Shown piece by piece: positions 46,078 to 62,907 of a stretch of DNA of 64,000 nt (the stretch's first letter is position 1; each line of letters begins with the position of its first letter). The DNA comes from Polyangiaceae bacterium (lineage in GTDB: Bacteria > Myxococcota_A > Polyangia > Polyangiales > Polyangiaceae), in contig DATHES010000045.1 in assembly GCA_035318465.1 (NCBI GenBank), positions 53,214 through 117,213 on the forward strand, read 5' to 3'. Below the pieces are notes generated by a model. The model was not told the DNA's origin, ran no database searches, and saw only the letters and a list, made by a program, of their open reading frames with translations. Made by a program: the position numbers and the translations under genes.

Positions 46078-46455
46078 TTACACGTCCTCTACGATTGCGA
46101 GAATGTTGCCCTCGGGGTCCTTGAACCAAGCGGCTTTCGCGCCGCCCCCGATCGCAATGCCATCTTTCGTCTTCACACCGGGCATATCGTATTCCTCGAA
46201 GACGACACCTTTGCCCTTGAGCTCGGCGACCTCGCGTTCGACGTCCTCCACCTGCCAAAACGCCTGGCTCGCGCGCGAAGTACCGGCGTTGGGCGTGGGA
46301 TAGAGGAAGCACGCCGTGGCACCGGCGAACTCGTAGATGACGCCGCCATTGGCTTCGCGCTTCGGCTTGAAGCCGAGCTTTTGCTCATAGAACTGGCGAG
46401 CACGGTTCAAGTCCTTCGCAGGAAGGTACGCAAACATGGGCGATCGCTGCAGCAT
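46078..46455 (-). CDS. VOC family (glyoxalase-fold) protein
   Basis: 125 aa with ..DL.RA.QFYEQKLGF............F and KAAWFKDPEGNILAIVE. Confidence 0.8.
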   Translation of the reverse strand: MLQRSPMFAYLPAKDLNRARQFYEQKLGFKPKREANGGVIYEFAGATACFLYPTPNAGTSRASQAFWQVEDVEREVAELKGKGVVFEEYDMPGVKTKDGIAIGGGAKAAWFKDPEGNILAIVEDV

Positions 46456-46544: not shown

Positions 46545-47069
46545 TCATCGCTGCGCAGCAGCGTCCGCAGCACCCGGCGAAAGGGACGCGATCCAGCCGC
46601 TTACGCACGCGAGCACGGCGTCGGGTAGCCGACCGAGTCCGAACGGCATCCGCTCGCCACAAGGTGGCGTCACCGCCGCGAGTTTCTGCCAAAGAAACGA
46701 CTGCTCCGGAGCGCCCCGCACGACGCGCACCCAGTCCTTGCAAATCGACGACGGAACCTCGAAGAGCTGAGGCTCGAGCGGGGTTTCGACGAGCCGGAGC
46801 CCGAAGGCCGTCGTGTTGCCGCCGTGGCAGTTGTCCCAGCTGCATGCCACGCCGAAGAGATTCTTTTGAATCGACTCGCCGGTCGGCTCGCAGCGAATGG
46901 CGTTGAGATCGGGCAGCCAGCTCGGCGCATCGCCCGCGCTGGGCGCGTCTTGGGCGCTCTCAGCGTCGCTCTCGACAGACGTCACTGCACCAGAATCGGA
47001 GCAGCCTTGCGCGCCCGCTGCGGGCAAGAACGCACGGAGCGCGAGAAAGACGACGTCTCGCCGGTCCAC
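46545..47069 (-). CDS. lipoprotein with PSCyt1-like (planctomycete cytochrome c-like) domain, CxxxxCH variant
   Basis: GTG 47069 gives the signal MDRRDVVFLALRAFLPAAGAQGC. The C-terminal region reads LFGVACSWDNCHGG...FGLRL....VVRGAPEQSFLWQKL....MPFG...LP......V.GWI. This follows the PSCyt1 pattern C..CHG..GL.L...PG.PE.S.L...MP..L......WI, except for the 4-residue Cys spacing. Confidence 0.55.
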   Translation of the reverse strand: MDRRDVVFLALRAFLPAAGAQGCSDSGAVTSVESDAESAQDAPSAGDAPSWLPDLNAIRCEPTGESIQKNLFGVACSWDNCHGGNTTAFGLRLVETPLEPQLFEVPSSICKDWVRVVRGAPEQSFLWQKLAAVTPPCGERMPFGLGRLPDAVLACVSGWIASLSPGAADAAAQR

Positions 47070-47100
47070 GCTGCGCTGGGCGCGCGATCGGATCGTCCGA

Positions 47101-48705
47101 TCACCCAGGACGACCAAGCGCAGCCGCCCGGCGGGAGTGCTCCACGTACTCGGACCAGGTCTTGGGACCGCCCGGCTCTTGAAATGCCCAGCGGCGCGGC
47201 CCGTATTCCCCGTCGAGGTGACGCCGCACTTCCTCGAGCGCGGAGGACTGGATGCGGCAACGCTTGGCCGCGACGTCGATACCGTAGAGCTTGGCCGAGT
47301 TGAGGCCGAAGATCTTGGCCTTGTTGGCTTTGTCGAGCGGCGGGTAGCCATACTGCTGTTGCAGCTCTTCGGGGATATTGAGATTGCGAAACCACTCGAT
47401 GTACGGCTGGGGTGAACCGTAAATGACGCAGTCCGTTCCCCAGACGACCCGATCGACGCCGACGTACTTCATCAGCTTGCCGAAGAAATGCGCCGCCGCC
47501 GTGGCGTTCGTGTTCACCTGGTTGATGGCGCTGCCAACCTCGGCATACACGTTCTGGTTGGGACCGACGCCGTTGTCGATGAGCGAACGGATGAGCGCGT
47601 TCACGCCCGTCGGATTGGGCTCGCTGTCGTCGTAGGCCCCCTCCGGCGGGGCGGCATTGGTCGTCTCGAAGCCCGAGCAGATGCCCGAATGGTAAATGAT
47701 GAAGTTCGCCTGCGGGTAAGCCTTGGCGACGATGCCCACCTCGCGGGGGTGGTTGTGCTCTTTCTCGAAGAAGCTCCCGATGGGCAGGCCCTTGTGCACG
47801 CAAAACCGGTTCAAGCCGAGGGCAAGTCCGTGCTCGATGATCTGCCGCGACTCCGGCTCGTCCAAAAAGTACCCTGCTGACCCGCGGGGATCGATGGAGG
47901 CCGCATTGAAGCCGGGATACATCTTCCATCCCGCGGCGCCGCGTTCGCAGTAGAGCTTCGTCATCAGCTCTTTCTGCTTGTCGACGCCGGTGATGTCCTT
48001 CGGCAAGACTTGAAAGTGCTGCACGACGCGCTGGGTGTTGAACGCGAGTGCATTGATCTTGTCGCGCGATCCGACCATCGACTCGTTGGAGAGCGGCATC
48101 CCGCAGGGATCCATGTTCGAGGGATCGTCGGGGCACGAGGTGCCCGGCCACGACGTGAGCACGGTCATGGCGGTGTCGCTGTTCATGAACATGCTGTTGA
48201 TGTAGGCGTTTTCGTTGGCGATGATGAAAAGGGGCCCGAACTGCGCCAGAACCGACGGCGGAAAGCGCTTGGTGTCGTCGGTGTTGAACCAGTGGGTCTG
48301 CACGTCGAAGATGAACTCCTCGCCGGCCACGACGGTGCACGCGGCGGCCTCGTCGAACATCGCTTCGGGCGGCACGCAGAGGGGCCCTCCCGCTTCTTTG
48401 CCCGCGTCCACGGCCGGGCTGAGACCCGATCCGCCGTTGCTCGAGCAACCGCTCACCAGGTTGATGCACCAGAGCGTGGTCACCATCCCCATCGCGCTGG
48501 CCAGGAATTCGCGGCGATCCACGCCGAGACGGCGCGCGTTCTCGTCCGCTTTCTCGAGCACGAGACGGCGCAGCTTCGTCTCGTAAGGCGTTTCAAAGTG
48601 AAAGTACTCACCGTTCGAGCAAGGCCCCATCCACAAGGGCGGATTCAGCGGCAGCTCGGGATCGGTCTTCTTGCGCCTCTTCAGCCAGGGGAATTTGGTC
48701 TTCAT
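47101..48705 (-). CDS. exported metal-dependent amidohydrolase (Amidohydro_2-like TIM barrel) with Tat motif and lipobox
   Basis: DRREFLASAMG...LVSGC (twin-arginine plus lipobox) is preceded by an N-terminal extension of about 65 aa. The motifs FDVQTHW, CVHKG, IIYHSG and VVWGTDC fit amidohydrolase metal ligands. Confidence 0.8.
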   Translation of the reverse strand: MKTKFPWLKRRKKTDPELPLNPPLWMGPCSNGEYFHFETPYETKLRRLVLEKADENARRLGVDRREFLASAMGMVTTLWCINLVSGCSSNGGSGLSPAVDAGKEAGGPLCVPPEAMFDEAAACTVVAGEEFIFDVQTHWFNTDDTKRFPPSVLAQFGPLFIIANENAYINSMFMNSDTAMTVLTSWPGTSCPDDPSNMDPCGMPLSNESMVGSRDKINALAFNTQRVVQHFQVLPKDITGVDKQKELMTKLYCERGAAGWKMYPGFNAASIDPRGSAGYFLDEPESRQIIEHGLALGLNRFCVHKGLPIGSFFEKEHNHPREVGIVAKAYPQANFIIYHSGICSGFETTNAAPPEGAYDDSEPNPTGVNALIRSLIDNGVGPNQNVYAEVGSAINQVNTNATAAAHFFGKLMKYVGVDRVVWGTDCVIYGSPQPYIEWFRNLNIPEELQQQYGYPPLDKANKAKIFGLNSAKLYGIDVAAKRCRIQSSALEEVRRHLDGEYGPRRWAFQEPGGPKTWSEYVEHSRRAAALGRPG

Positions 48706-48755
48706 TGGCAGGGCCTCTTCTCAAGCCGCCCGCTGCGGCGTCGCGACGCGAAAGT

Positions 48756-49886
48756 TCAGAAATTGCTGGCCGACCAGGGTCGGCCGGAGCTCGGCGCGTA
48801 GTATCCGAACATGTTGCACATCTCCCCGGTGTGGACGGCGTCCCCAAATCGCAATGTCACGGGGCCGTCATTCACCACTTCGCACTCCCACTCGATGCGG
48901 TCGCCGGCCTTGAGATCGAGCAGGCCGCTCCAGGCGCCGGACTGACGTGTGTCCGCGTTCCAGGGCTGATTGATCTGGAGGCTGTCGAACGTGAACATCT
49001 TGGGATCGTGCCAGTCGTAGTCCTCGAAAATCTGCCGGCGTTCCCCGCCAATGACGGAGAACGCGGAGAATCGGACGGTATGGGAATGGTAGTGACCGGT
49101 GGCGCCCACCAGCCTCAGATCTTGTGCCGCCGTCGCTAGACCCTTCGTGATCTTGGTGGTGGCCGGCGGGATATTGGCGGCGAGCCCGGCCAGAAAGAAG
49201 ATGGGATCGGAGAGAACCTTCACCGTGCTCGCGTCCCGATAAATCACGTTGACCCAGGCTTCGCGCAGCATCGGAGTCGTCGATGTGTTGAGGTAGTGAA
49301 GCTGGAACACCGCTTGCGCGCGCGCCGTGAGCTTCTGGGCGAGACCGTCATTCTCGGGCGCGGGGTTTTGGCTGCGATCGATGTCGATGGTGGGCGTTTG
49401 CGCGCCGAGGATCATCGCCGTATCGAGCCCTTGATTGCACGCCTCCGGTCCATTGGAATCGGGCATTTCCGAGGAGCGGGTGAAGACGAGCAGGTGATGG
49501 GATCCGGGCCGCATCCGGCCGTGGTATTCCGAATGGAACACCTCGACGTCGTTGGGCGTCTTCATGAAGACGCAATCGGTCGTCTCTTCGCCGGGCATGA
49601 GGATGTACTTTTGGACCTCGGCCGGATCGTCGTAGTTCTTGGGACCGTAGTGAAGCTGCAACCCCAGGTTCGGCGGGGGTGGCTGGATGCAGAACTCGTC
49701 ACCCGCGTAGCCCGAATGGATGTTGCAGGGCATCGCGCCGGGGCCGACCGGCGGGCCAGCTTCGGGCGTCGTCGGGGGAGGAGGCGGGGGGTTAGCGGCG
49801 CTCGGCGCGCTGTCAGAGCCACACGCCGGCACGAGCGCGAATGCGCAAGCAAGCGGTAGCCAGGAGAGAATACTCAAGTTTTTCAT
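48756..49886 (-). CDS. copper type II ascorbate-dependent monooxygenase-like (PHM/DBH fold) lipoprotein
   Basis: SD ggagg and signal MKNLSILSWLPLACAFALVPAC. The motifs GSHHLLVF, FQLHY, GHYHSH and HTGEMCNMFGYY correspond to the CuH (HH...H) and CuM (HxH...M) ligand segments of peptidylglycine alpha-hydroxylating monooxygenase, as I remember that sequence. Confidence 0.75.
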   Translation of the reverse strand: MKNLSILSWLPLACAFALVPACGSDSAPSAANPPPPPPTTPEAGPPVGPGAMPCNIHSGYAGDEFCIQPPPPNLGLQLHYGPKNYDDPAEVQKYILMPGEETTDCVFMKTPNDVEVFHSEYHGRMRPGSHHLLVFTRSSEMPDSNGPEACNQGLDTAMILGAQTPTIDIDRSQNPAPENDGLAQKLTARAQAVFQLHYLNTSTTPMLREAWVNVIYRDASTVKVLSDPIFFLAGLAANIPPATTKITKGLATAAQDLRLVGATGHYHSHTVRFSAFSVIGGERRQIFEDYDWHDPKMFTFDSLQINQPWNADTRQSGAWSGLLDLKAGDRIEWECEVVNDGPVTLRFGDAVHTGEMCNMFGYYAPSSGRPWSASNF

Positions 49887-49931
49887 GAGGCCTCCTTCGG
49901 GGCTGCGAAAGCGCCATTCACTGTCAACTGG

Positions 49932-49965
49932 TTGGACCAGTAGCAGGTCCAATCGTATGGGACAA
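49932..49965 (-). promoter_or_regulatory. promoter-like element with embedded palindromic operator (candidate GntR site), copy 1
   Basis: Minus sense reads TTGTCC-17 nt-TACTGG, containing TTGGACC-7 nt-GGTCCAA (49932-49952). It lies 50 nt upstream of the monooxygenase ATG. The 22-nt core GGTTGGACCAGTAGCAGGTCCA recurs at 52356-52377 with one mismatch. Confidence 0.5.
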
Positions 49966-50042
49966 GGAAAAAAACCCTGCCGCATCAACGGTTGAGACCG
50001 CCGCCGCCCTTTTTCCTTGGGGGCGGACGAGGGCGGTCGCTT

Positions 50043-50888
50043 TCATCTCGATCCGCGCCGTCGCGGCCGCTCGGGGGCGGCCTCGCTCTCTGCGGGGGCC
50101 GTGCCGTCGAGCGACAACTCGTAGTTGGCGGCGAAGACAGCGACCGCCTCGCGCATCGCGACGCGAGTCTCGGTTTCGGCTCGAGCAGCGTCGCCGGCGC
50201 TGATCGCTTCGACGATCGATTTGCGATAGTCGTTGCTGCGAATCTCGTTGGCCGACCACTTTTCCGCCAGGGGTCCCATCGCGTAGAGGCCTTTGATGAG
50301 ACTGTTGAAGGCGAGCTGGTAGGCCAAGTTGTCGGCGCCTTGCACGGCGCGCTCCCAAAGATGCACCTCCAGCTGAAAGAGACGCTGATCGCCGGTGGCC
50401 TTTTGCATTTCACTGGCAATGGTCAGGAGCTCGTCCTTGAGGGTGCTGGTGGCGCGCAATGCGCAGAGCCGGGCAACGTCGGCGGCGATGGCGGCGCGCA
50501 TTTCGAGCACCGCCAACCACACGACCGCGACGTCCTTTCCCCCGCGCGCGTGCTCGGCCATGAGCGCGAGCAGATCCAAGCCGGCATGTCGTTTGAAGTC
50601 CAACACCTTGGTCTCGCCGCCCTGCGAAATCTTGAGCAGACCAATCTGCTCCAGCCGCTTCAGCGCCTCGCGCACGACGTGCCGATTGACGCCGAACACG
50701 TCGACGAGCGATCGTTCGGCGGGAAGGCTCGCCGAAGGCAAATAGCGACCTGTCATGATCTCGCTGGCGAGTTGCTCGAATACCTGGTCGGCAAGGGAGC
50801 GGTTTTGGATCGCACGCAGCGGCACGAAGTCTCTTATCTGGTTCCCGTCACGACGAGGCATGACCACCTTGGCGAAATCACCCGGCAT
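50043..50888 (-). CDS. GntR family transcriptional regulator (FadR subfamily, FCD domain)
   Basis: Winged HTH LPAERSLVDVFGVNRHVVREALKRLEQIGLLKI.QGGETKV followed by an all-helical FCD-type domain. The start is 10 nt after the stop of the propeller gene. Confidence 0.88.
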   Translation of the reverse strand: MPGDFAKVVMPRRDGNQIRDFVPLRAIQNRSLADQVFEQLASEIMTGRYLPSASLPAERSLVDVFGVNRHVVREALKRLEQIGLLKISQGGETKVLDFKRHAGLDLLALMAEHARGGKDVAVVWLAVLEMRAAIAADVARLCALRATSTLKDELLTIASEMQKATGDQRLFQLEVHLWERAVQGADNLAYQLAFNSLIKGLYAMGPLAEKWSANEIRSNDYRKSIVEAISAGDAARAETETRVAMREAVAVFAANYELSLDGTAPAESEAAPERPRRRGSR

Positions 50889-50898
50889 AGGACGACGC

Positions 50899-52350
50899 TC
50901 ACGGAAGACCGAACGCCACGAGGCCCCCCGGTTGGGTACCGCTGGGAAGCCATCCCCATCCGTGGCCGGCGAAGACCATTCCCCCGGAAACCGAGACGCC
51001 TCCCCCCATCGATAGCCCGACCGGCCGAGCCCAGAGCAGGTGGCCGTCGGCAATGTCGTATGCGCGCGCCTCGCCTGCCAGGGTAGGAACGAAGAGGATG
51101 CCGTTGGCGAGGGCGACACCGCCGAAGGTGCCCGGCGTCGTCGTGACGCGCCAGCGCACGTTGCCGTCCGCGGCATCGAGCGCGAAGATCGTGGCCTCAC
51201 CGGGACCTCCGCCCACACCCGCGCTGCCACCGGTACTGCCATTGTTGGAGGCGACGTAGATCACGCCATCGGCATAGGCGCTGGAGGCCATGACGCCGCC
51301 ATTGGAGCCTCCGGGGGTCAAAAGCGTGGTCCAGATCACCTCGCCGGTGTCGCGGTCGAGTGCGAAGTAGCGCCCGCCCTTGTCGCCCACGCCGACCATG
51401 GCGCGGCTGCCCACCTGGAAAAGGTTGGGGCTGGCGCCGACGTCGAAATCGGGACCGTTCGAGGTTGGAACCTGAAAACGGTCGCCCATGGTGAACTGCT
51501 GCGCCCAGGCGAGCTCGCCGGTTTCGTAACGGATGGCGATGAGCGCGTCTGAATAGGGCGAGGCGACGCCTTGCGTATACTCTTGCCCGGTGCCGATGAA
51601 CGCGAGCTTGCGGCCCTTGTCGATGGCCGCAGAGGACCAGACCGATACGCCGCTTCCGTCGGTCAGAAAGAGGCGCCACTTGACGGCGCCGGTCTTGACG
51701 TCGACGCCCACCACATTGCCGCGAAAGGCCGGCGTGGCAGGCAAGAAAACCTGGTAAGAGCCGACACCGATGAGAAGCAGGTCGTCAATGACGACCGGCG
51801 ACGACCACAGCATGAGCGAGGCTTGCTCGTCGATCCTCTGCTGCCACAGGATTTCGCCCGTTTTGCGATCGACGGAGGAAAGGAGCGCGGTGTGGGCTCC
51901 GATGTAGACGGCGTTTTCCGTGACGAAGGGGGAGTCGTTGACCTGATTGGGCGCACCGGCGGGCTGGACCGGGGTCGCCCAGATGGACTCGCCGCTGCGC
52001 GCATCGACGGCGCGGAGCACGCTGTTCCAGTCTCCGAAATAGGCGACACCGCCGAGCACGCACACGGTGCTGGTCACGGCCGTCTCCGAGAAGGACCACC
52101 GCGGCTCGAGCGTCGTCACGTTGCTCTTGGTGATGGTCTGCTCTAGCGGATTGTTCCGGCTGTTGTCGTAATCGCGCCCATAGGAGGGCCAGTCGGATGA
52201 CAGGGGCGGCGCGGCATCCGCGCCGCCATCGCCCTCGGGGGGTGTGAGCGCCGACGTCGAATCGCTGCACGCGGCGATGGCCGCGGAGAGTGCGAGGCCC
52301 TGCGCCAGCGCACGCCCTGATTGAAGGAAAATCGCCCCAACAGGTCTCAT
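50899..52350 (-). CDS. PQQ-dependent-dehydrogenase-like beta-propeller lipoprotein
   Basis: Signal MRPVGAIFLQSGRALAQGLALSAAIAAC. DWPSYGRDYDNSRNNPLEQ..T.SNVTTLEPRW is the quinoprotein N-terminal signature. Repeated A(V/L)D..TGE..W blades follow. The longer track ORF overlaps merR and was rejected. Confidence 0.8.
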   Translation of the reverse strand: MRPVGAIFLQSGRALAQGLALSAAIAACSDSTSALTPPEGDGGADAAPPLSSDWPSYGRDYDNSRNNPLEQTITKSNVTTLEPRWSFSETAVTSTVCVLGGVAYFGDWNSVLRAVDARSGESIWATPVQPAGAPNQVNDSPFVTENAVYIGAHTALLSSVDRKTGEILWQQRIDEQASLMLWSSPVVIDDLLLIGVGSYQVFLPATPAFRGNVVGVDVKTGAVKWRLFLTDGSGVSVWSSAAIDKGRKLAFIGTGQEYTQGVASPYSDALIAIRYETGELAWAQQFTMGDRFQVPTSNGPDFDVGASPNLFQVGSRAMVGVGDKGGRYFALDRDTGEVIWTTLLTPGGSNGGVMASSAYADGVIYVASNNGSTGGSAGVGGGPGEATIFALDAADGNVRWRVTTTPGTFGGVALANGILFVPTLAGEARAYDIADGHLLWARPVGLSMGGGVSVSGGMVFAGHGWGWLPSGTQPGGLVAFGLP

Positions 52351-52357
52351 CCGGTGG

Positions 52358-52391
52358 TTGGACCAGTAACAGGTCCACCCTCGATCGGCAA
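52358..52391 (-). promoter_or_regulatory. promoter-like element with embedded palindromic operator (candidate GntR site), copy 2
   Basis: Minus sense reads TTGCCG-17 nt-TACTGG, containing TTGGACC-7 nt-GGTCCAC (52358-52378). The -10-like hexamer ends 12 nt before ATG 52350, and no SD is present. Confidence 0.5.
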
Positions 52392-52463: not shown

Positions 52464-53222
52464 CTAACGCCGTCGTTTCGTTCGCGGAGCGCGGGCCAGG
52501 GCTGCCAACTTGCCTGATTCGAGGAGCTTGCGCAGGGCCCGTTCCATCTCGCGCCCGAAAAGAATCCGCACCGCCTCCATGCCCGACGGCCGGAGCGCCT
52601 GAAAGAGCGCGCTGGCGTCCTTCGACTCGATGAGGCCCTTTCCCGCGCGTTTCATGAAGAGATCGACGAGATCGTCGACGGTGCGCCGCATGTGCTTGCG
52701 AATGATGGCAGCGGCTTCCTTGGCCGTCTCCAGATCGATGCCGACCGATTCGAGCTTCAGGGCAAGCGTGAGGAGCGCCGGGCTGTGAAGAAGGTAAACG
52801 TCCCCGTGGCGTTCGATCACCCCCACGCGCAAGAGCTCTCCGAGCAAGCCGGCGCGCCGCGAACCGGCCAGGCGATAGAGTTCCTCTTCGGTCACCGTTT
52901 TTGGCTGATCGTCGGCCCATGACGCCTGCAGCTGCTGCTCCACGCCGAGCCATTCCGCCAGATCGAGCTCTCCCCGATCGATGCTGGAGAGCAAATCGCG
53001 GATGGCATCGATGCGCAGCCCACGGTCCTGCAGCTGCGCGATGAGCTCGAGACGTTCGATGTGCGGCTTGCCGTAGTACGCGACGCGACCGCGGATCTCG
53101 GGGGGCATGAGGGCGCCGCGCGACTGGTAAAAGCGGATGGTGCGACTGGGCACGTGCGACGCCGTCGCGAGGTCATCGATGGTGTATTGAGGGGGTTCGG
53201 GGCGGACTTCGGGCGAGGACAT
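52464..53222 (-). CDS. MerR family transcriptional regulator
   Basis: YTIDDLATASHVPSRTIRFYQSRGALMPP..RGRVAYYG..H..RLELI..LQDRGL.I.AIRDLL. Trimmed from the 696-aa track ORF to MSSPEV (ATG 53222). Confidence 0.85.
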   Translation of the reverse strand: MSSPEVRPEPPQYTIDDLATASHVPSRTIRFYQSRGALMPPEIRGRVAYYGKPHIERLELIAQLQDRGLRIDAIRDLLSSIDRGELDLAEWLGVEQQLQASWADDQPKTVTEEELYRLAGSRRAGLLGELLRVGVIERHGDVYLLHSPALLTLALKLESVGIDLETAKEAAAIIRKHMRRTVDDLVDLFMKRAGKGLIESKDASALFQALRPSGMEAVRILFGREMERALRKLLESGKLAALARAPRTKRRR

Positions 53223-53263: not shown

Positions 53264-54460
53264 TCACGCCATTGCGCGCATCACTTGCCGCACGCCCCCC
53301 TCGCGCGAGAGCTGCGCAATGTGCGCGAGGGCTTTGCGCAGCGTACGGCCCCAGGTGTCGGTCTTGTACGCGACTCCATGGCGCTCGCAGATGGCGCGAA
53401 CTTCCGGGGCGATTTGCCGCAAGCGCTGCGGCGGGAGCGTGGGGAAAAGGTGATGCTCGATCTGACGATCGAGACCACCGCACAAGACCGAGACCGGAAG
53501 ACTGACCTCGTAGTTGTTCGCGGCTTCGATCTGCATGGCGTACCAATCGGCGCGGCCGAGCGCCTTGGTCCCCTCGGGGTAAGTCGCCACGTCGTGTCCC
53601 ACGTGACCGCAGAAAATGGTCGCCGCCGAATAGACGTCGCGCATGCGCTCGGCCAGCCAGTTTCCGAGAAGCACTTTCCAGAAGAAAGGGCCCGCCAAGG
53701 CCGGAAAGAACACATAGTTCTTGATGAAGTAAGGGATGTATTTGCGCAGCGCCTTTTTCCAGGCGGCGCGCACGCTCTCCTTGGACCGGTCGGTGATGAA
53801 GTCGAACTGCTCGGGTCGGCCATTTCCTACGTAGACGTCGGTGAGACCGGTAAAGTGCAGGTTCATCAGGAAACCAAAAAACGGAAACAGAACGCCCAGC
53901 GTAAACGGCAGCTGATAACGATGCCGCGCGTCGTGGGGCGTGTGCTCGGTGAGGCGCACCGGCCCGAAATGGATATCCGGATCTTTGCCGGCGACGTTCG
54001 TATTTCCGTGATGGCGCACGTTGTGCCCATAACGCCAGGACGCTTCGTCGATGGGAGTATCCCAACGAAAGGTCTTGGACGACAGCGCCTTTCCCCCTGG
54101 GATTCGGTCGTAGGCGCCATGCAAAGCGGTGTGGCCGATTTCCGTCGCTTGCAGCTGCTTGTGGATCCAGAGCGCTCCCACGCCCAGGAAGAACGTCACC
54201 GGCTCCGGGCTCACATGGATGAGAACGCGGCCGACCACCTGCATCGCGAGAGAAAAACGGTTGAGCCTCTTCACATGAGCGAGATCGGTGCTCCCGAGCT
54301 CTGCAAAGGTACGTTCTTTCAGCTGGTCGAGCTCCTGACCGAAGCGGCGACGGCGCTCGGGGTCGGAGAAACGTTGGAGAATGACCGGCGTCTCTCGGAC
54401 GGCGGTGGAAGACGTCATGGGTGCATGCGCACCCGGTGCACTGGGTTGAATCGATTGCAT
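53264..54460 (-). CDS. membrane fatty acid (acyl-CoA/acyl-lipid) desaturase
   Basis: Three His boxes (HTALHG, HNVRHH, QIEHHLFP) and TM helices. SD gaggaggg lies before ATG 54460. Confidence 0.9.
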   Translation of the reverse strand: MQSIQPSAPGAHAPMTSSTAVRETPVILQRFSDPERRRRFGQELDQLKERTFAELGSTDLAHVKRLNRFSLAMQVVGRVLIHVSPEPVTFFLGVGALWIHKQLQATEIGHTALHGAYDRIPGGKALSSKTFRWDTPIDEASWRYGHNVRHHGNTNVAGKDPDIHFGPVRLTEHTPHDARHRYQLPFTLGVLFPFFGFLMNLHFTGLTDVYVGNGRPEQFDFITDRSKESVRAAWKKALRKYIPYFIKNYVFFPALAGPFFWKVLLGNWLAERMRDVYSAATIFCGHVGHDVATYPEGTKALGRADWYAMQIEAANNYEVSLPVSVLCGGLDRQIEHHLFPTLPPQRLRQIAPEVRAICERHGVAYKTDTWGRTLRKALAHIAQLSREGGVRQVMRAMA

Positions 54461-54525
54461 CAATCCCTCCTCGGGAAGACTGTCTGACCGTCACGCCACG
54501 GAGTGGAGCAGTAACTAACGTGACA

Positions 54526-54606: not shown

Positions 54607-56133
54607 CTACGCGGAGCGCGTCAAACCCGGCGAATGTCGCCTTCGGCGGCGCGCGAGAACGCACGCCAGCGCGGCCCACCCGAGGGCGCGCTCTCCGCGA
54701 TCGGACCGCGGGCTCGCCAAGCGACAGCCGCACCCTGCATCGTCCTCGCCCGGCGGGGCGAGCCCCGATCCGCTGGCGTCGCGCGTACTTGCGTCGCCGG
54801 ATGGATCGCCGGCATCGCGGCTCACGGCGGCGTCGGGCGTCATGCCACTTCCGGCGTCCTTGCCGGGGGCATCGAGCGTGTTCCCACCGCCACCGCCTGC
54901 GTCCACGTCAGGACGAACGGTGCCTGCATCGCCCCCTGCCCCGTCAGTGGAAGCATCCGTCGGGGCGCCCCCTGTCACGGTAATTCGGTTCTGCAGCTGG
55001 TTGTCCGGTGGGCCGCCCTGCCCCGGATCGCTGAACCACGCGACCCCGTCCTCGACGACGTTGAAGTATTCTGCATAAACCCCAGAGGCAGCGGGCGCCT
55101 GGAGCGTGAATTGAAAACGGTACGTTGCGCCCGGAGGGACGGTGCCTTGCACGGCGGCTAGCCGGGTGGGATCGAGCCAGTCCGAGGCAGCAAACATGCT
55201 CGGACGATCGCGGGGATTGCTGGTGGCCAAGCGGGTATTCGAATCCCACGTTTTGGTTCCGATGTTCTTGAGCTCGATATAGGCGGAGACCTTCGCATTG
55301 CCCGTCATGGTCATGCCGGCGCTGGCCAAGGGGAACGATTGCGCAACGTACTCTGCCGCATAGAACGGCGCGCTGGTGCCCGTGATCTTCTTCAGGTCGT
55401 CCAGCGATCCGTTGAACCTGTCGAGATCGACATCGCCGGCGATGCCGGACACCGTCCCGGTGCTGCTGTATTGCCATATCGACCAGTTCGACCAGGCATC
55501 CGGAAGATCGGGACAGGTGACACCATAGTTGGCCACCCATAGCCGATCGGCGCTGAAGTCCCTGCTCGCGACATTGTCGTTCCAGAAGTACTTCGCCGTA
55601 TAGATGAAGGGGCGTTTTCCGGTGCCCGTCGTCACCCGGTCCATCCAGGTTTTCATCTTGCTGGCGATGTTGGCGGATGATTGGCCGCCCGTCGCTTCCA
55701 TGTCGAGCTGAACCGGGAGATCGCCTGCGCCCAGCATGCCCACGCGCTGCACGACCATGTCCGCCTGGGCCAGCGCATCCTGCCCGGGTTCGAAGTACTG
55801 GTACGCACCGCGGATGAGTCCTACCGATTTGATGCCCGCCCAGTTGTCGGCAAACTCGCTGTCCGGAAAGTTCAATCCATCGCTGATGCGCGTCACCGCG
55901 AACTGGATTCCGGAGGCCTTCACCTGTTGCCAATTGATCGTCTTTTGGTAATAGGAGACGTCGATGCCTTCGACCGTCGTCGTTGCGGGGCAGACGCGCA
56001 CCTCGTCGGACGATTCGCCGGTGGCGTCGTAGGGAGAGCCCGAGCAGCCGACCATCGGCAAAAGGGCAGCGGCGACGGCGAATGCCGCGCGCACATCCAC
56101 ACCATCACCATTGCGCCGCAACCACCTCGCCAT
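54607..56133 (-). CDS. GH25 muramidase (lysozyme) with beta-sandwich domain and MYXO-CTERM tail
   Basis: Signal ...AALLPMVGC. GIDVSYYQ..INW..VKASGIQFAVTRIS.G and LPVQLDME are GH25 motifs. The NBR1-like domain carries a D/G/A-rich linker. The terminus reads DDAGCGCRLA...LACVLARRRRR. Confidence 0.85.
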   Translation of the reverse strand: MARWLRRNGDGVDVRAAFAVAAALLPMVGCSGSPYDATGESSDEVRVCPATTTVEGIDVSYYQKTINWQQVKASGIQFAVTRISDGLNFPDSEFADNWAGIKSVGLIRGAYQYFEPGQDALAQADMVVQRVGMLGAGDLPVQLDMEATGGQSSANIASKMKTWMDRVTTGTGKRPFIYTAKYFWNDNVASRDFSADRLWVANYGVTCPDLPDAWSNWSIWQYSSTGTVSGIAGDVDLDRFNGSLDDLKKITGTSAPFYAAEYVAQSFPLASAGMTMTGNAKVSAYIELKNIGTKTWDSNTRLATSNPRDRPSMFAASDWLDPTRLAAVQGTVPPGATYRFQFTLQAPAASGVYAEYFNVVEDGVAWFSDPGQGGPPDNQLQNRITVTGGAPTDASTDGAGGDAGTVRPDVDAGGGGGNTLDAPGKDAGSGMTPDAAVSRDAGDPSGDASTRDASGSGLAPPGEDDAGCGCRLASPRSDRGERALGWAALACVLARRRRRHSPGLTRSA

Positions 56134-56182
56134 GACGTCGTGACGATTAGCGCACGAGCCAAGAGCCGTGGTCAAGGCAGAT

Positions 56183-60576: not shown

Positions 60577-60786
60577 TGCCGACGGCGGGAGCCCGCGGCG
60601 GGGGGAGAACCAGCGACCGAAGCGCATCCGGTGGAGAGACCGGGGCCGCTCCAGCAACCTGTTTGTGATCGAAATGGCCCGCCATTCGCATCCTTGGTGA
60701 TGCCGAGGTCTGCACGACGTCCCCGATCGAGTGGTCTGACCACTCCTGTCCGTCGGGAGACGAAAAAAGCCAGGAGCGAAGAAAAG

Positions 60787-62907
60787 ATGGCCTCTCCGAG
60801 CTCATCGCTGGGTAGGTTCGCGTCGGTAGCGGGGATTTTGGCCTTCGTTGTCGGAGCGGGGAGCAGTTGCAGCGCGCCGCCCGCTGTCCGCGCGACGCCC
60901 GACGCGAGCACGCCGACCAATATTCCGCCCATCGCGCCGCCTCCTCCTCCGCCGGGGGCCGCAGATGCCTCGGGCGGCGGGATCATCATCAAGATGGACG
61001 CGCCGTCGAGTGACGGTCCTTGCACACCGGCTCAGTGCGATCCCCCCGGCGGCCGCTATTGTGGCGTCGTTGGCGACAACTGCGGCGGCAGGCTCGACTG
61101 CCTGACCTGTCCGGGGGACTGGTCGTGCGAGAAGAACGTTTGCGTGGGCGGGCCGAGCTGCCAACCGGTGGCGTGCACGGTTCCAGGCGCGCGTTACTGC
61201 GGCAAGGTCGGAGATGGCTGCGGCAGAGAGCTCGACTGCGGCGACTGCCCGGCGGGGGACACGTGCACCGATCGCGTGTGCGTTCCGCCCGGCTGCATCC
61301 CGCTCAAGTGCGACTTCGCGGGCGGCAGATTTTGCGGGAAAATGGGCAACGGTTGCGGCGGCACGCTCGAATGCGGCGACTGCGCCGCTCCCAATACGTG
61401 CGGCGGCGGAGGGCTCTCGAACATCTGCGGAGGCGATCCCAGCTGCGTCAAAGTGAGCTGCGCTCCCGCCACCGGCGGCAGGTACTGCGACAAGATCGGC
61501 GACGGCTGCGGCGGTGCGCAGGAGTGCGGACCGTGTCCGGACGGCAAGGCCTGCGGCAGCGGCAATGTGCCCAACGTCTGCCCGGGCAACGCCCCGACGA
61601 CGTGCTCAGGGCTCGCGTGCAAGGTCGCGGCGTGCGACGGCGGCATGAAAACGTCGGTGAGCGGCACCGTCTACGATCCCGCCGGCGCCAATCCGCTTTA
61701 CAACGTCATCGTCTACATTCCCAACGCGGCGCTCGATCCCGTTCCGGAGGGCGCGTCGTGCGACGGCTGCAACGGCACGCTGTCCGGAAAACCCATCACC
61801 ACCGCGCTGACGGATACCAGCGGGCATTTCACCCTGGTGGGAGCGCCGACGGGAACCGACATTCCCCTCGTCATCCAAATCGGCAAATGGCGCCGCGAGA
61901 TCACGATACCGAACGTCGCTTCGTGCGTCGATAACCCCATCGCCGACAAGAACCTCACCCGACTGCCGCGCGACAGCTCCGAAGGGCACATCCCCAAGAT
62001 GGCCATCGCGACGGGCGGCTCTGACGCCCTCGAGTGCCTGGTCCGCAAGATCGGGATCGCCGACGCCGAGTTCACCAACGGAGGGGGGACGGGAAGAGTG
62101 AACCTCTTCTCCGGATACGCCGCACCGACGACGATGGCCAACGGGACCGCCCTCGCCACGGCCAACAGCCTGTGGAGCGACGCCGCAAAGCTGAAAAGCT
62201 ACGACATGATGATCATGTCGTGCGAAGGCAGCGACAACGTCAGCCGCACGACGGCGCAATACGCCAACGTGCACGCTTACGCCGACATGGGCGGGCGCAT
62301 CTTCGGATCGCACTGGCACAACGGCTGGATCAACCCCGAGAACACGCCGTTTCCGATGGTGGTGAAGTTCTCGTCGGGCGCGCACGGCTTCACCACGCCC
62401 ATCACGGGGACCATCGACACCACCTTTCCGAAGGGGATGGCGTTTGCCGATTGGCTCGTCAAGGTGGGCGCGTCCACCACGCCGCAGATGATCGAGATTC
62501 GCGGGGCCGAGCACACCGTCGACTCGGTCATGCCGGGGCTGGCCCAGCGCTGGATCTACGGCACCGATACCGAGAAAAACACGCCGATGGTCCAGTATTT
62601 CTCGTTCAACGCGCCCGTCGGCGGCCAGGCGTGTGGCCGGATGGTGTTCAGCGACGTGCACGTCTCGGCGGGCGCGGGTACGGATTCCGGCAAGGTTCCT
62701 TTTCCGACGGGTTGCACGACGACGACCCTGTCGCCCCAGGAAAAGGCGCTCGAGTTCATGATCTTCGATCTCTCGTCGTGCGTGCAGCCCGACTCGGATC
62801 CCGTGAAGCCCCCTCCGCCTATACCCGGGACGCCACCGCCCCCGGTCTCCGTGCCGCCACCGCCCCCGCCGGTGCCGCCACCGCCTCCCCTGCCCCCACC
62901 CAAGTAA
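60787..62907 (+). CDS. secreted lipoprotein: four 8-Cys modules, CarboxypepD_reg-like beta-sandwich, large uncharacterised domain and poly-Pro tail
   Basis: Signal MASPSSSLGRFASVAGILAFVVGAGSSC. The module C..(x)C....GGRYCG.(V/I)GDGCGG.L(D/E)CG.CP.G..C....VC occurs four times. VSGTVYDPAG.NPLYNVIVYIPN...TDTSGHFTL precedes a conserved-looking domain of about 400 aa, ending PPPIPGTPPPPVSVPPPPPPVPPPPPLPPPK. Confidence 0.75.
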   Translation: MASPSSSLGRFASVAGILAFVVGAGSSCSAPPAVRATPDASTPTNIPPIAPPPPPPGAADASGGGIIIKMDAPSSDGPCTPAQCDPPGGRYCGVVGDNCGGRLDCLTCPGDWSCEKNVCVGGPSCQPVACTVPGARYCGKVGDGCGRELDCGDCPAGDTCTDRVCVPPGCIPLKCDFAGGRFCGKMGNGCGGTLECGDCAAPNTCGGGGLSNICGGDPSCVKVSCAPATGGRYCDKIGDGCGGAQECGPCPDGKACGSGNVPNVCPGNAPTTCSGLACKVAACDGGMKTSVSGTVYDPAGANPLYNVIVYIPNAALDPVPEGASCDGCNGTLSGKPITTALTDTSGHFTLVGAPTGTDIPLVIQIGKWRREITIPNVASCVDNPIADKNLTRLPRDSSEGHIPKMAIATGGSDALECLVRKIGIADAEFTNGGGTGRVNLFSGYAAPTTMANGTALATANSLWSDAAKLKSYDMMIMSCEGSDNVSRTTAQYANVHAYADMGGRIFGSHWHNGWINPENTPFPMVVKFSSGAHGFTTPITGTIDTTFPKGMAFADWLVKVGASTTPQMIEIRGAEHTVDSVMPGLAQRWIYGTDTEKNTPMVQYFSFNAPVGGQACGRMVFSDVHVSAGAGTDSGKVPFPTGCTTTTLSPQEKALEFMIFDLSSCVQPDSDPVKPPPPIPGTPPPPVSVPPPPPPVPPPPPLPPPK
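61021..61602 (+). repeat. four tandem coding repeats (about 135-160 bp) for the 8-Cys modules
   Basis: Module boundaries derive from the protein repeats CTPAQC..., CQPVAC..., CIPLKC... and CVKVSC.... Confidence 0.7.

Follow-up and report, generated by a model that had tools for sequence, protein, structure and literature searches.

Textbooks describe peptidylglycine alpha-hydroxylating monooxygenase (PHM), dopamine beta-hydroxylase (DBH) and tyramine beta-monooxygenase as eukaryotic enzymes, and all three depend on ascorbate. PHM and DBH are type II copper monooxygenases. Their bacterial relatives are, to our knowledge, annotated as 'hypothetical', and neither partners nor substrates are known for them. 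Here we describe a cluster of five consecutive genes on the minus strand (46545-52350) of a stretch of DNA from a Polyangiaceae bacterium (contig DATHES010000045.1; the whole analysed stretch of 64,000 nucleotides (nt) is called the window). In this cluster a PHM-type copper monooxygenase is placed within a bacterial cytochrome-linked envelope module, a setting that appears to be new. The components all belong to known superfamilies; the monooxygenase family lies outside the Pfam and NCBIfam thresholds and is annotated 'hypothetical'. An initial annotation of the window had noted that no characterised bacterial pathway is known to have this composition. The literature agrees, in that we found neither a characterised bacterial PHM/DBH-type enzyme nor a pathway composed in this way, which is weak evidence of absence because the coverage was incomplete. 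From the sequences we tentatively read the locus as a GntR-repressed, two-operon envelope oxidation module that may house a cytochrome-driven and ascorbate-independent PHM-type hydroxylase.

Several other described systems bear on the comparison. In known alcohol dehydrogenases that use pyrroloquinoline quinone (PQQ), electrons exit through a c-type cytochrome, and the known members of the Amidohydro_2 family, of the LigJ, LigI and ACMSD/LigW types, are cytoplasmic. Haem attachment through a CX4CH motif occurs in some multihaem cytochromes. The inverted repeat TGGT-N3-ACCA is the classical operator type of FadR-subfamily GntR regulators, for which the Escherichia coli FadR box, ANCTGGTCNGACNTGTT, is an example, and regulators of the FCD type often sense small organic acids.

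Organization of the cluster and export signals

The initial annotation had described five co-oriented genes in two blocks, propeller-gntR and monooxygenase-amidohydrolase-lipoprotein, and both the open reading frames (ORFs) and the gene calls on a 99%-identical contig bear this out. Gene coordinates were taken from the ORF listing together with inspection of start codons, and gene calls made independently on metagenome contigs of 99% identity agree with them (483, 281, 376, 534 and 174 amino acids, from the propeller to the small lipoprotein). The gntR gene starts 11 nt past the propeller stop codon and is co-transcribed with the propeller gene, and the intergenic gaps in the cluster measure 157, 50 and 31 nt. 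The GC content of the region is ∼63-66%. Every enzyme had been said to carry a lipobox or Tat export signal, and inspection of the N-terminal sequences found such motifs in each. Lipobox-type N-termini are present in the propeller (...AIAAC; N-terminus MRPVGAIFLQSGRALAQGLALSAAIAAC), the monooxygenase (...LVPAC) and the small lipoprotein (...GAQGC), and at the amidohydrolase N-terminus an invariant twin-arginine motif (RREFL) precedes LVSGC.

A divergent family with the PHM/DBH fold

The monooxygenase gene (48756-49886, minus strand) encodes a lipoprotein of 376 amino acids whose assignment to the PHM/DBH group stood in fold and copper ligands and failed in the Pfam test. Its match to PF03712 (Cu2_monoox_C) reached 12.2 bits (E = 0.12) where the cut-off is 23, and PF01082 gave no match. 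A few relatives do match PF03712 (protein P0049 and the gene in locus L089). NCBIfam holds no family for the monooxygenase, the amidohydrolase or the small lipoprotein, and among the five proteins it was the propeller, the GntR regulator and the amidohydrolase that passed the profile check suggested in the initial annotation, whereas the monooxygenase and the small lipoprotein, two of the five, failed. Searches of PDB sequences with the single monooxygenase sequence or with a profile returned nothing significant, with PHM touched at E ∼ 1. We collected 182 homologues, nearly all of them 'hypothetical proteins' of Polyangiaceae-type metagenome bins.

An alignment of 57 of these homologues has H130, H131, H197, H265, H267 and M356 as invariant residues, and three Cys pairs are also conserved. 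These residues make up a CuH ligand set (H130-H131 plus H197) and a CuM ligand set (H265-x-H267 plus M356) of the PHM/DBH kind. The AlphaFold2 model, built on the homologue alignment, has a predicted local distance difference test score (pLDDT) of 88.5 and a predicted template modelling score (pTM) of 0.80. A Foldseek comparison of the model with the PDB, which the initial annotation had called for, returned exclusively rat PHM and human DBH in ranks 1-31, with E values from 7e-13, at template modelling (TM) scores of 0.54/0.65, to 3e-9, and TM scores that reach 0.56 relative to the query and 0.67 relative to the target; past rank 31 the matches drop to E ∼ 1e-5 and a TM score of 0.28. PHM and DBH share with the model the two-domain beta-sandwich fold, and they too are extracytoplasmic. 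The family profile aligns weakly with PHM (E ∼ 1), and in this weak alignment the HH pair falls on H107/H108 and M356/N358 fall on M314/N316, so that the EMCN segment of the window enzyme faces PHM E313-M314-C315-N316; the residue-by-residue correspondence takes in HH, EMCN and several Cys positions. On the basis of the model, the enzyme is predicted to be a PHM/DBH superfamily member that is complete in fold and copper ligands, and it is likely to be a functional two-copper monooxygenase.

The differences from PHM and DBH are also clear. Identity is ∼15%, under the Pfam gathering scores, and the window enzyme is a bacterial lipoprotein. The system has neither a DOMON domain nor a PAL partner; the family is linked or fused to c-type cytochrome domains, and no ascorbate is expected in the bacterial envelope. 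The position of PHM Tyr318, which anchors the substrate carboxylate, is occupied by F360, and Phe is found there in at least 90% of the homologues. The equivalent of PHM Arg240 was not confidently alignable. The alignment thus predicts that the enzyme lacks at least one PHM-specific substrate anchor.

The PHM-like family is strongly expanded in single Polyangiaceae metagenome-assembled genomes (MAGs), with, for example, at least six copies in SMAG_U333 and at least eight in SMAG_U12422 (loci L011-L056), and most of these paralogues stand in contexts unrelated to the module.

A cytochrome-like lipoprotein and cytochrome-PHM fusions

The last gene of the cluster (46545-47069, minus strand) encodes a small lipoprotein of 174 amino acids, which the initial annotation had taken for a haem-type carrier. 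No Pfam family, PSCyt1 included, matched it at E ≤ 1. A word-indexed search found 3 relatives and an exhaustive profile search 4583. The conserved unit is a domain of ∼105 amino acids, often in tandem, and many of the thousands of proteins that it retrieves are annotated PSCyt1, Cytochrom_C or CBB3; PSCyt1 was present in 8 of 10 sampled hits of the profile search, in most cases together with Cytochrom_C or Cytochrome_CBB3. CHRD, PKD or Big domains were also frequent in the sampled relatives. Three of the relatives (P0246, P0250 and P0324) are large proteins with several copies of the cytochrome-like domain plus CHRD, PKD or bacterial Ig domains, an architecture that is uncharacterised.

Among 26 single-domain relatives, C60, C81, H82, C110, C137, M141, P142, C155 and W159 are invariant. 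The haem-type motif is C76-SWDN-C81-H82, that is, CX4CH in place of CXXCH, and this spacing is kept in the subfamily, as is the Met ligand motif M141-P142. The lipoprotein thus shares with PSCyt1 and class I cytochromes the haem-motif His, the Met-Pro of the sixth ligand and a C-terminal W-I-x-x-L/G-A, and differs from them in the CX4CH motif and in four further invariant cysteines; it also differs from PSCyt1 in being a single-domain protein of ∼170 amino acids outside the large DUF1549/DUF1553-type proteins. The claim of a haem-type carrier therefore survives in the remote homology and not in the canonical motif. By these sequence features the lipoprotein is predicted to be cytochrome-c-like, a remote relative of PSCyt1 and class I cytochrome c with its His and Met ligands retained, and it is a probable electron carrier.

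Cytochrome and monooxygenase are linked in another phylum also. In 30 of 32 Gemmatimonadota loci with distant homologues, a cytochrome-like domain lies directly N-terminal of the PHM-like core, and at least 26 of these loci encode the two as a single ORF that has a canonical CXXCH. In a Gemmatimonas chromosome (L063:9422-10846), for example, the order of motifs is CVSCH, LMPMG, WIEAGAP, RMRPGSHH, VHY, HMH and DEM, and the fusion gene is flanked by genes for a DUF5916 protein and a TonB-dependent receptor. The Gemmatimonadota fusion proteins (L057-L088) have ∼460-670 amino acids and unite a PSCyt1-like cytochrome domain with a two-copper PHM-like core. Seven Myxococcota loci have the CX4CH lipoprotein gene beside that of the amidohydrolase or monooxygenase, and a monooxygenase homologue of 60% identity is flanked by c-type cytochrome genes. 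Moreover, a homologue of ∼70% identity in locus L004 (10001-11128) is divergent from a gene for a dihaem HZS_alpha-like propeller. The latter (L004:7394-9700, minus strand) is a 768-amino-acid lipoprotein of the hydrazine-synthase alpha (HZS_alpha) propeller family with two CXXCH motifs, and it is followed by genes for a HEAT-repeat protein and a 1048-amino-acid protein without an assigned family. It is mainly because of the fusion of cytochrome and PHM domains that we propose a c-type cytochrome, instead of ascorbate, as the reductant of CuH, and we consider it probable that the cytochrome is the electron donor of the monooxygenase.

Recurrence of the gene set

Neighbourhoods were compared in 80 genome loci reached through the monooxygenase alignment and in contigs of single homologues, with tblastn and custom hidden Markov models. 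The monooxygenase, the amidohydrolase, the propeller and the cytochrome-like gene recur in ∼10 Myxococcota loci, at 43-78% identity, in shuffled orders and with differing regulators, in MAGs labelled Polyangiaceae, Kofleriaceae, Myxococcales or 'delta proteobacterium'. The arrangement closest to the window is that of L009, a Polyangiaceae MAG with a monooxygenase of 78% identity and the order propeller-gntR-monooxygenase-amidohydrolase. The order is monooxygenase-amidohydrolase-propeller in L014 (a Kofleriaceae MAG), TetR-monooxygenase-propeller-amidohydrolase-lipoprotein in L017, and monooxygenase-x-amidohydrolase-propeller-lipoprotein, with AraC nearby, in L093 (a 9.5-Mb Myxococcales genome). 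In L010 the series AfsR-like regulator-x-amidohydrolase-lipoprotein is divergent from the monooxygenase, and the propeller is 3′ of the latter. L089 has Crp and, further on, monooxygenase-amidohydrolase, and in L054 the amidohydrolase is divergent from the monooxygenase. In two further loci no propeller was detected: in L019 the amidohydrolase-lipoprotein pair is on the opposite strand, ∼4 kb from the monooxygenase, with an intervening unscanned ORF of ∼1,060 amino acids, and in L012 the pair is on the same strand, ∼8 kb 5′ of the monooxygenase, which has an unscanned ORF of ∼1,070 amino acids beside it on the opposite strand. The regulators, which differ by locus (GntR, TetR, AraC, Crp, AfsR-like), are of small-molecule types.

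In a neighbour-joining tree most module loci are in the clade of the window, and L054 is in a distant paralogue clade. L014, L019 and L089 stand apart near the root, a position that is taken to be an artefact of trimming or alignment. Most unlabelled members of the window clade are on contigs too short for their context to be judged. Within one clade the module thus recurs, is rearranged and comes under different regulators; it is not an obligate operon. Its recurrence is good evidence of functional linkage, and it is likely, on balance, that the four proteins act in one pathway.

Operators, promoters and the GntR regulator

The initial annotation had reported a shared motif before each block, and this is confirmed as a 23-nt motif, TGGACCTG[C/T]TACTGGTCCAACCA, at 49929-49951 and 52355-52377, with 22 of 23 bases identical. 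One intergenic copy precedes each of the two gene blocks. With up to 3 mismatches allowed, the window gave no further match, and the two copies compare with 0 expected (100 dinucleotide-preserving shuffles, with no match in any). The core TACTGGTCCAACCA holds TGGT-N3-ACCA, in the operator TGGT-CCA-ACCA. Operator 1, before the propeller (52355-52377, minus strand; TGGACCTGTTACTGGTCCAACCA), ends 4 nt ahead of the propeller ATG and is overlapped by TTGCCG-17 nt-TACTGG. Operator 2, before the monooxygenase (49929-49951, minus strand; TGGACCTGCTACTGGTCCAACCA), forms with the next two bases a perfect inverted repeat, ACTGGT-CCA-ACCAGT, and is overlapped by TTGTCC-17 nt-TACTGG. The monooxygenase ATG is preceded by a strong Shine-Dalgarno sequence, GAAGGAGG. 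The propeller ATG is only 12 nt downstream of TACTGG, and the propeller mRNA would therefore be near leaderless.

A strict sigma-70 scan detected no promoter at these sites because TACTGG is without the final T. Nevertheless TTGnnn, a spacer of exactly 17 nt and TACTGG are present in all four promoters compared, two in the window and two in L009, the 78% orthologue. From this spacing, the operator would overlap the likely -10 and start region, and for that reason the GntR protein is presumed to repress both blocks. In L009 the left arm of the motif is not kept, and the core TACTGGTCCAACCA is found before both the propeller and the monooxygenase; the same holds for the core in L006 and L007. 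Across 93 fetched loci, the 13-mer ACTGGTCCAACCA occurs only in those that carry gntR (L001/L003 and L006/L007/L009), before both units.

The regulator itself (gntR, 50043-50888, minus strand; 281 amino acids) is of the FadR/FCD subfamily and passes the Pfam thresholds for GntR (8e-18, 64 bits) and FCD (1.6e-10, 42 bits). It is far under all cut-offs of the NCBIfam equivalogs (NanR, FadR, PdhR, LldR and others). It resembles the FadR-subfamily repressors in its GntR helix-turn-helix and FCD domains, in the operator core CTGGTCCAACCAG, a TGGT-N3-ACCA inverted repeat that overlaps a promoter, and in the position of its gene within the cluster that it would control.

Palindromic TGGT-N3-ACCA sites number 3 in the window, compared with 0.22 expected. 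The third is a perfect 17-bp palindrome, GAGTGGTCTGACCACTC, at 60729-60745, ∼45 nt 5′ of a plus-strand gene (60787-62907) for a Cys-rich lipoprotein of 706 amino acids that matches no Pfam family. This GntR protein, or another regulator of the family, might also act at this palindrome. Just 5′ of it, the intergenic segment 60470-60545 carries an imperfect tandem repeat in which a ∼30-nt unit (GGGTTGTTGCTGCTGCAGGGCTTGCGAAGC and similar) is present three times.

The propeller and the amidohydrolase

The propeller (50899-52350, minus strand; 483 amino acids) is a PQQ-dehydrogenase-like lipoprotein that matches PQQ_2 (1.8e-30, 107 bits) and PQQ (1.1e-26, 94 bits), both above cut-offs of ∼27. Its best relatives among PDB sequences are quinohaemoprotein alcohol dehydrogenases (1kv9, 2.7e-19), BamB and tetrathionate hydrolase. 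No NHL match was obtained at E ≤ 1, and only PQQ, PQQ_2, related 8-bladed families and structures of PQQ-dependent alcohol dehydrogenases and BamB were hit. The scores are far under the NCBIfam cut-offs for true PQQ dehydrogenases (102 bits for TIGR03075, cut-off 480), and the best NCBIfam partial match, likewise far under its cut-off as all of them are, is to the 'acido-empty-quinoprotein' family. Compared with ADH IIB (1kv9), the window protein has the 8-bladed PQQ-type propeller and the periplasmic location, but it is ∼100 amino acids shorter and has no cytochrome domain of its own. The alignment to 1kv9, which is uncertain near the catalytic Asp, retains the stacking Trp (G-x-x-V-W) and the DFD motif, and among the cluster propellers an N-terminal W-x-Y-G..R, the G-x-x-V-W Trp and D-F-D are conserved.

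The amidohydrolase (47101-48705, minus strand; 534 amino acids) is an Amidohydro_2 TIM-barrel enzyme that passes the threshold of PF04909 (36.7 bits, cut-off 26.4). More than 900 full-length homologues were found, and PF04909 is present in all 120 among the matches listed. PDB sequences gave nothing significant, either with the single sequence or with a profile of 46 homologues. The AlphaFold2 model (pLDDT 89) has as its best folds the LigJ hydratase 6dwv (E 1e-6), the uncharacterised TIM barrel BB4693, a Thermonema amidohydrolase and NagA. The conserved residues D134, Q136, H138, H304, H339, D425, R64, R65 and C87 include His, His and Asp at the expected metal or catalytic positions. In contrast to LigJ, LigI and the ACMSD/LigW types, the window enzyme has large insertions, a twin-arginine motif, an N-terminal extension of 60 amino acids and a lipobox Cys. 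The extension (residues 1-61, encoded at 48523-48705), which lies before the twin arginines, is conserved over ∼60 amino acids (FPWL..RKKTDPELP..PPIW.GN.SNGEYFH...). The hydrophobic segment has invariant S70, G73, M74 and T76, and Cys87 is invariant too. As judged from its sequence, this N-terminus is not typical of Tat or lipoprotein signals that are cleaved, and the leader might bind a chaperone, or might be a signal anchor that stays uncleaved and leaves a tail in the cytoplasm.

In another locus (L091:5625-8575), the gene for an amidohydrolase of 67% identity is translationally coupled to a cytochrome P450 gene, with an overlap at the P450 stop codon, and the locus also holds KAS-III, polyketide cyclase, methyltransferase and AMP-binding/PCP genes. 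The amidohydrolase thus occurs beside two unrelated monooxygenases, PHM-like and P450, which fits a role after hydroxylation.

Flanking genes

On the 5′ side of the module, and on the same strand, are genes for a MerR regulator (52464-53222) and a membrane fatty-acid desaturase (53264-54463); a VOC/glyoxalase gene (46078-46455) and a DEAD-box helicase gene lie on the 3′ side. The VOC/glyoxalase, MerR and desaturase genes were considered as members of the module and rejected, because they are beside it only in near-identical contigs and do not travel with it in other genomes. Beyond the desaturase, on the same strand (54607-56175), is a gene for a GH25 lysozyme-like protein that is secreted and has an Ig-like domain. 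This gene and the helicase gene, like the other flanking genes, do not accompany the module elsewhere.

A tentative mechanism and the points against it

In the reading that we tentatively favour, a small molecule, probably an organic acid as with most regulators of the FCD type, would free the GntR protein from its operators. The monooxygenase would then use O2 to hydroxylate a C-H bond, aliphatic or benzylic, in a substrate that is extracellular or part of the envelope, and would receive two electrons singly at CuH, like PHM and DBH. The electron source would be the c-type cytochrome-like lipoprotein and not ascorbate. The propeller, if it is a redox enzyme, may oxidize an alcohol, possibly the hydroxylated product itself, with the electrons returning via the cytochrome; the net reaction with such a loop would be R-H + O2 -> R=O + H2O. 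The amidohydrolase-superfamily enzyme could then hydrolyse, hydrate or decarboxylate the oxidized product. We regard a closed redox loop through the propeller as doubtful. Its fullest form is a self-contained system that needs no external reductant, in which the CX4CH cytochrome is re-reduced by the propeller as it oxidizes the product that the amidohydrolase cleaves, and this we consider unlikely.

A number of observations weigh against the proposed module as a whole or against one of its parts. Haem binding by the lipoprotein is putative, because its motif is CX4CH and not CXXCH and because it has no Pfam cytochrome match of its own. Just 7 of 53 loci of myxobacterial paralogues have a CXXCH gene within 3 kb, and the cytochrome inference is therefore limited to the window clade and to that of the fusions. 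The propeller, when aligned with ADH IIB in HMMER, is without the vicinal Cys-Cys, and it has Gln at the positions that we take to be the Ca ligands Glu and Asn of 1kv9; for these reasons, and with its low NCBIfam scores, it may have no redox function whatever. The fold matches of the amidohydrolase are weak (E 1e-6 to 1e-3, TM 0.31-0.39 on the query), and an invariant D134-V-Q136-T-H138 replaces the usual H-x-H (or E-x-H) as its first metal motif. The synteny suggested by the initial annotation does extend to other Myxococcota, but it is not universal: L004 and L008, with monooxygenase homologues of ∼70% identity, are without any partner, L009 is without the small lipoprotein, and among six amidohydrolase homologues two stand with a monooxygenase, one is coupled to a P450 and three are alone.

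Alternative explanations

The doubts about the propeller lead to one alternative, in which the monooxygenase and the cytochrome form a pair that draws its electrons from the respiratory cytochrome-c pool, the propeller is a binder without cofactor, a hydrolase or a scaffold, and the amidohydrolase alone processes the product. The absent Cys-Cys, the Gln residues at the presumed Ca-ligand positions and the partial match to 'acido-empty-quinoprotein' all point this way, BamB and tetrathionate hydrolase are non-redox members of the fold, and L089 has a monooxygenase and an amidohydrolase with no propeller. A dispensable or cofactor-free propeller is harder to reconcile with its presence beside the monooxygenase in six independent arrangements, and with the W-x-Y-G..R motif, the stacking Trp and D-F-D that the cluster propellers keep, and we hold this alternative to be unlikely. 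Bacterial peptide amidation, the analogy that the initial annotation drew from PHM and PAL, seems far less probable still. The PHM-like enzyme would hydroxylate a C-terminal Gly, and the propeller or the amidohydrolase would serve as a PAL-type lyase that gives glyoxylate and the amide. The PHM fold, the full copper ligand set and the conserved N316 agree with this, as do the metal-dependent hydrolase-fold enzyme beside the monooxygenase in module loci and an FCD-type regulator of the kind that often senses small organic acids. The analogy nevertheless fails at several points: PHM Tyr318 is a near-invariant Phe in the window family, the propeller is 8-bladed and PQQ-type with no NHL/PAL signal, where PAL (peptidyl-alpha-hydroxyglycine lyase) is a six-bladed NHL propeller, the gaps of 157, 50 and 31 nt are too small for a precursor gene, and no protease or ABC exporter is found at the window or related loci. 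It is because of this lost anchor, these absent genes and this propeller type that we disfavour peptide amidation, and the regulators also vary among loci as in catabolic or accessory modules.

The two other alternatives concern the purpose of the cluster. It might be a tailoring module and not a catabolic one, in which the monooxygenase and the amidohydrolase would modify a secondary metabolite or an envelope lipid that is the product of genes elsewhere. Polyangiaceae are rich in secondary metabolism, the 67%-identical amidohydrolase is coupled to a P450 in the biosynthetic-looking L091, and a fatty-acid desaturase and MerR lie just 5′ of the module in the window. Neither of these two genes is kept beside the module elsewhere, however, no biosynthetic core genes adjoin it in the window, L009, L010, L014, L017 or L093, and export takes all four proteins away from the assembly lines of the cytoplasm, which makes tailoring quite improbable. 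It is slightly less probable again that there is no common pathway and that neighbouring envelope genes came to share a regulator by chance in this lineage. Close homologues without partners do occur, of the monooxygenase (L004, L008) as of the amidohydrolase (L094-L096), and both families have many paralogues in Polyangiaceae, the monooxygenase with 6-8 copies per MAG. A chance association would not readily bring three or four of the families together in ∼10 loci despite differing order, strand and regulator, and the cytochrome/PHM fusion in another phylum is independent support for a link.

Implications

The locus and its relatives make up a testable system, with a divergent PHM-fold family, a genetically supported electron donor and two recurring partner enzymes, and the pair of repressor and operator is usable to identify the inducer and hence the substrate. 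Such enzymes could lead to biocatalysts for O2-dependent C-H hydroxylation that are free of ascorbate. If the self-contained system were true, it would be the first physiological electron-transfer chain to be defined for a non-eukaryotic enzyme of the PHM/DBH family, and would suggest that the animal enzymes descend from cytochrome-coupled bacterial ancestors. The finding thus bears on the evolutionary origin of the neuropeptide and catecholamine enzymes of animals.

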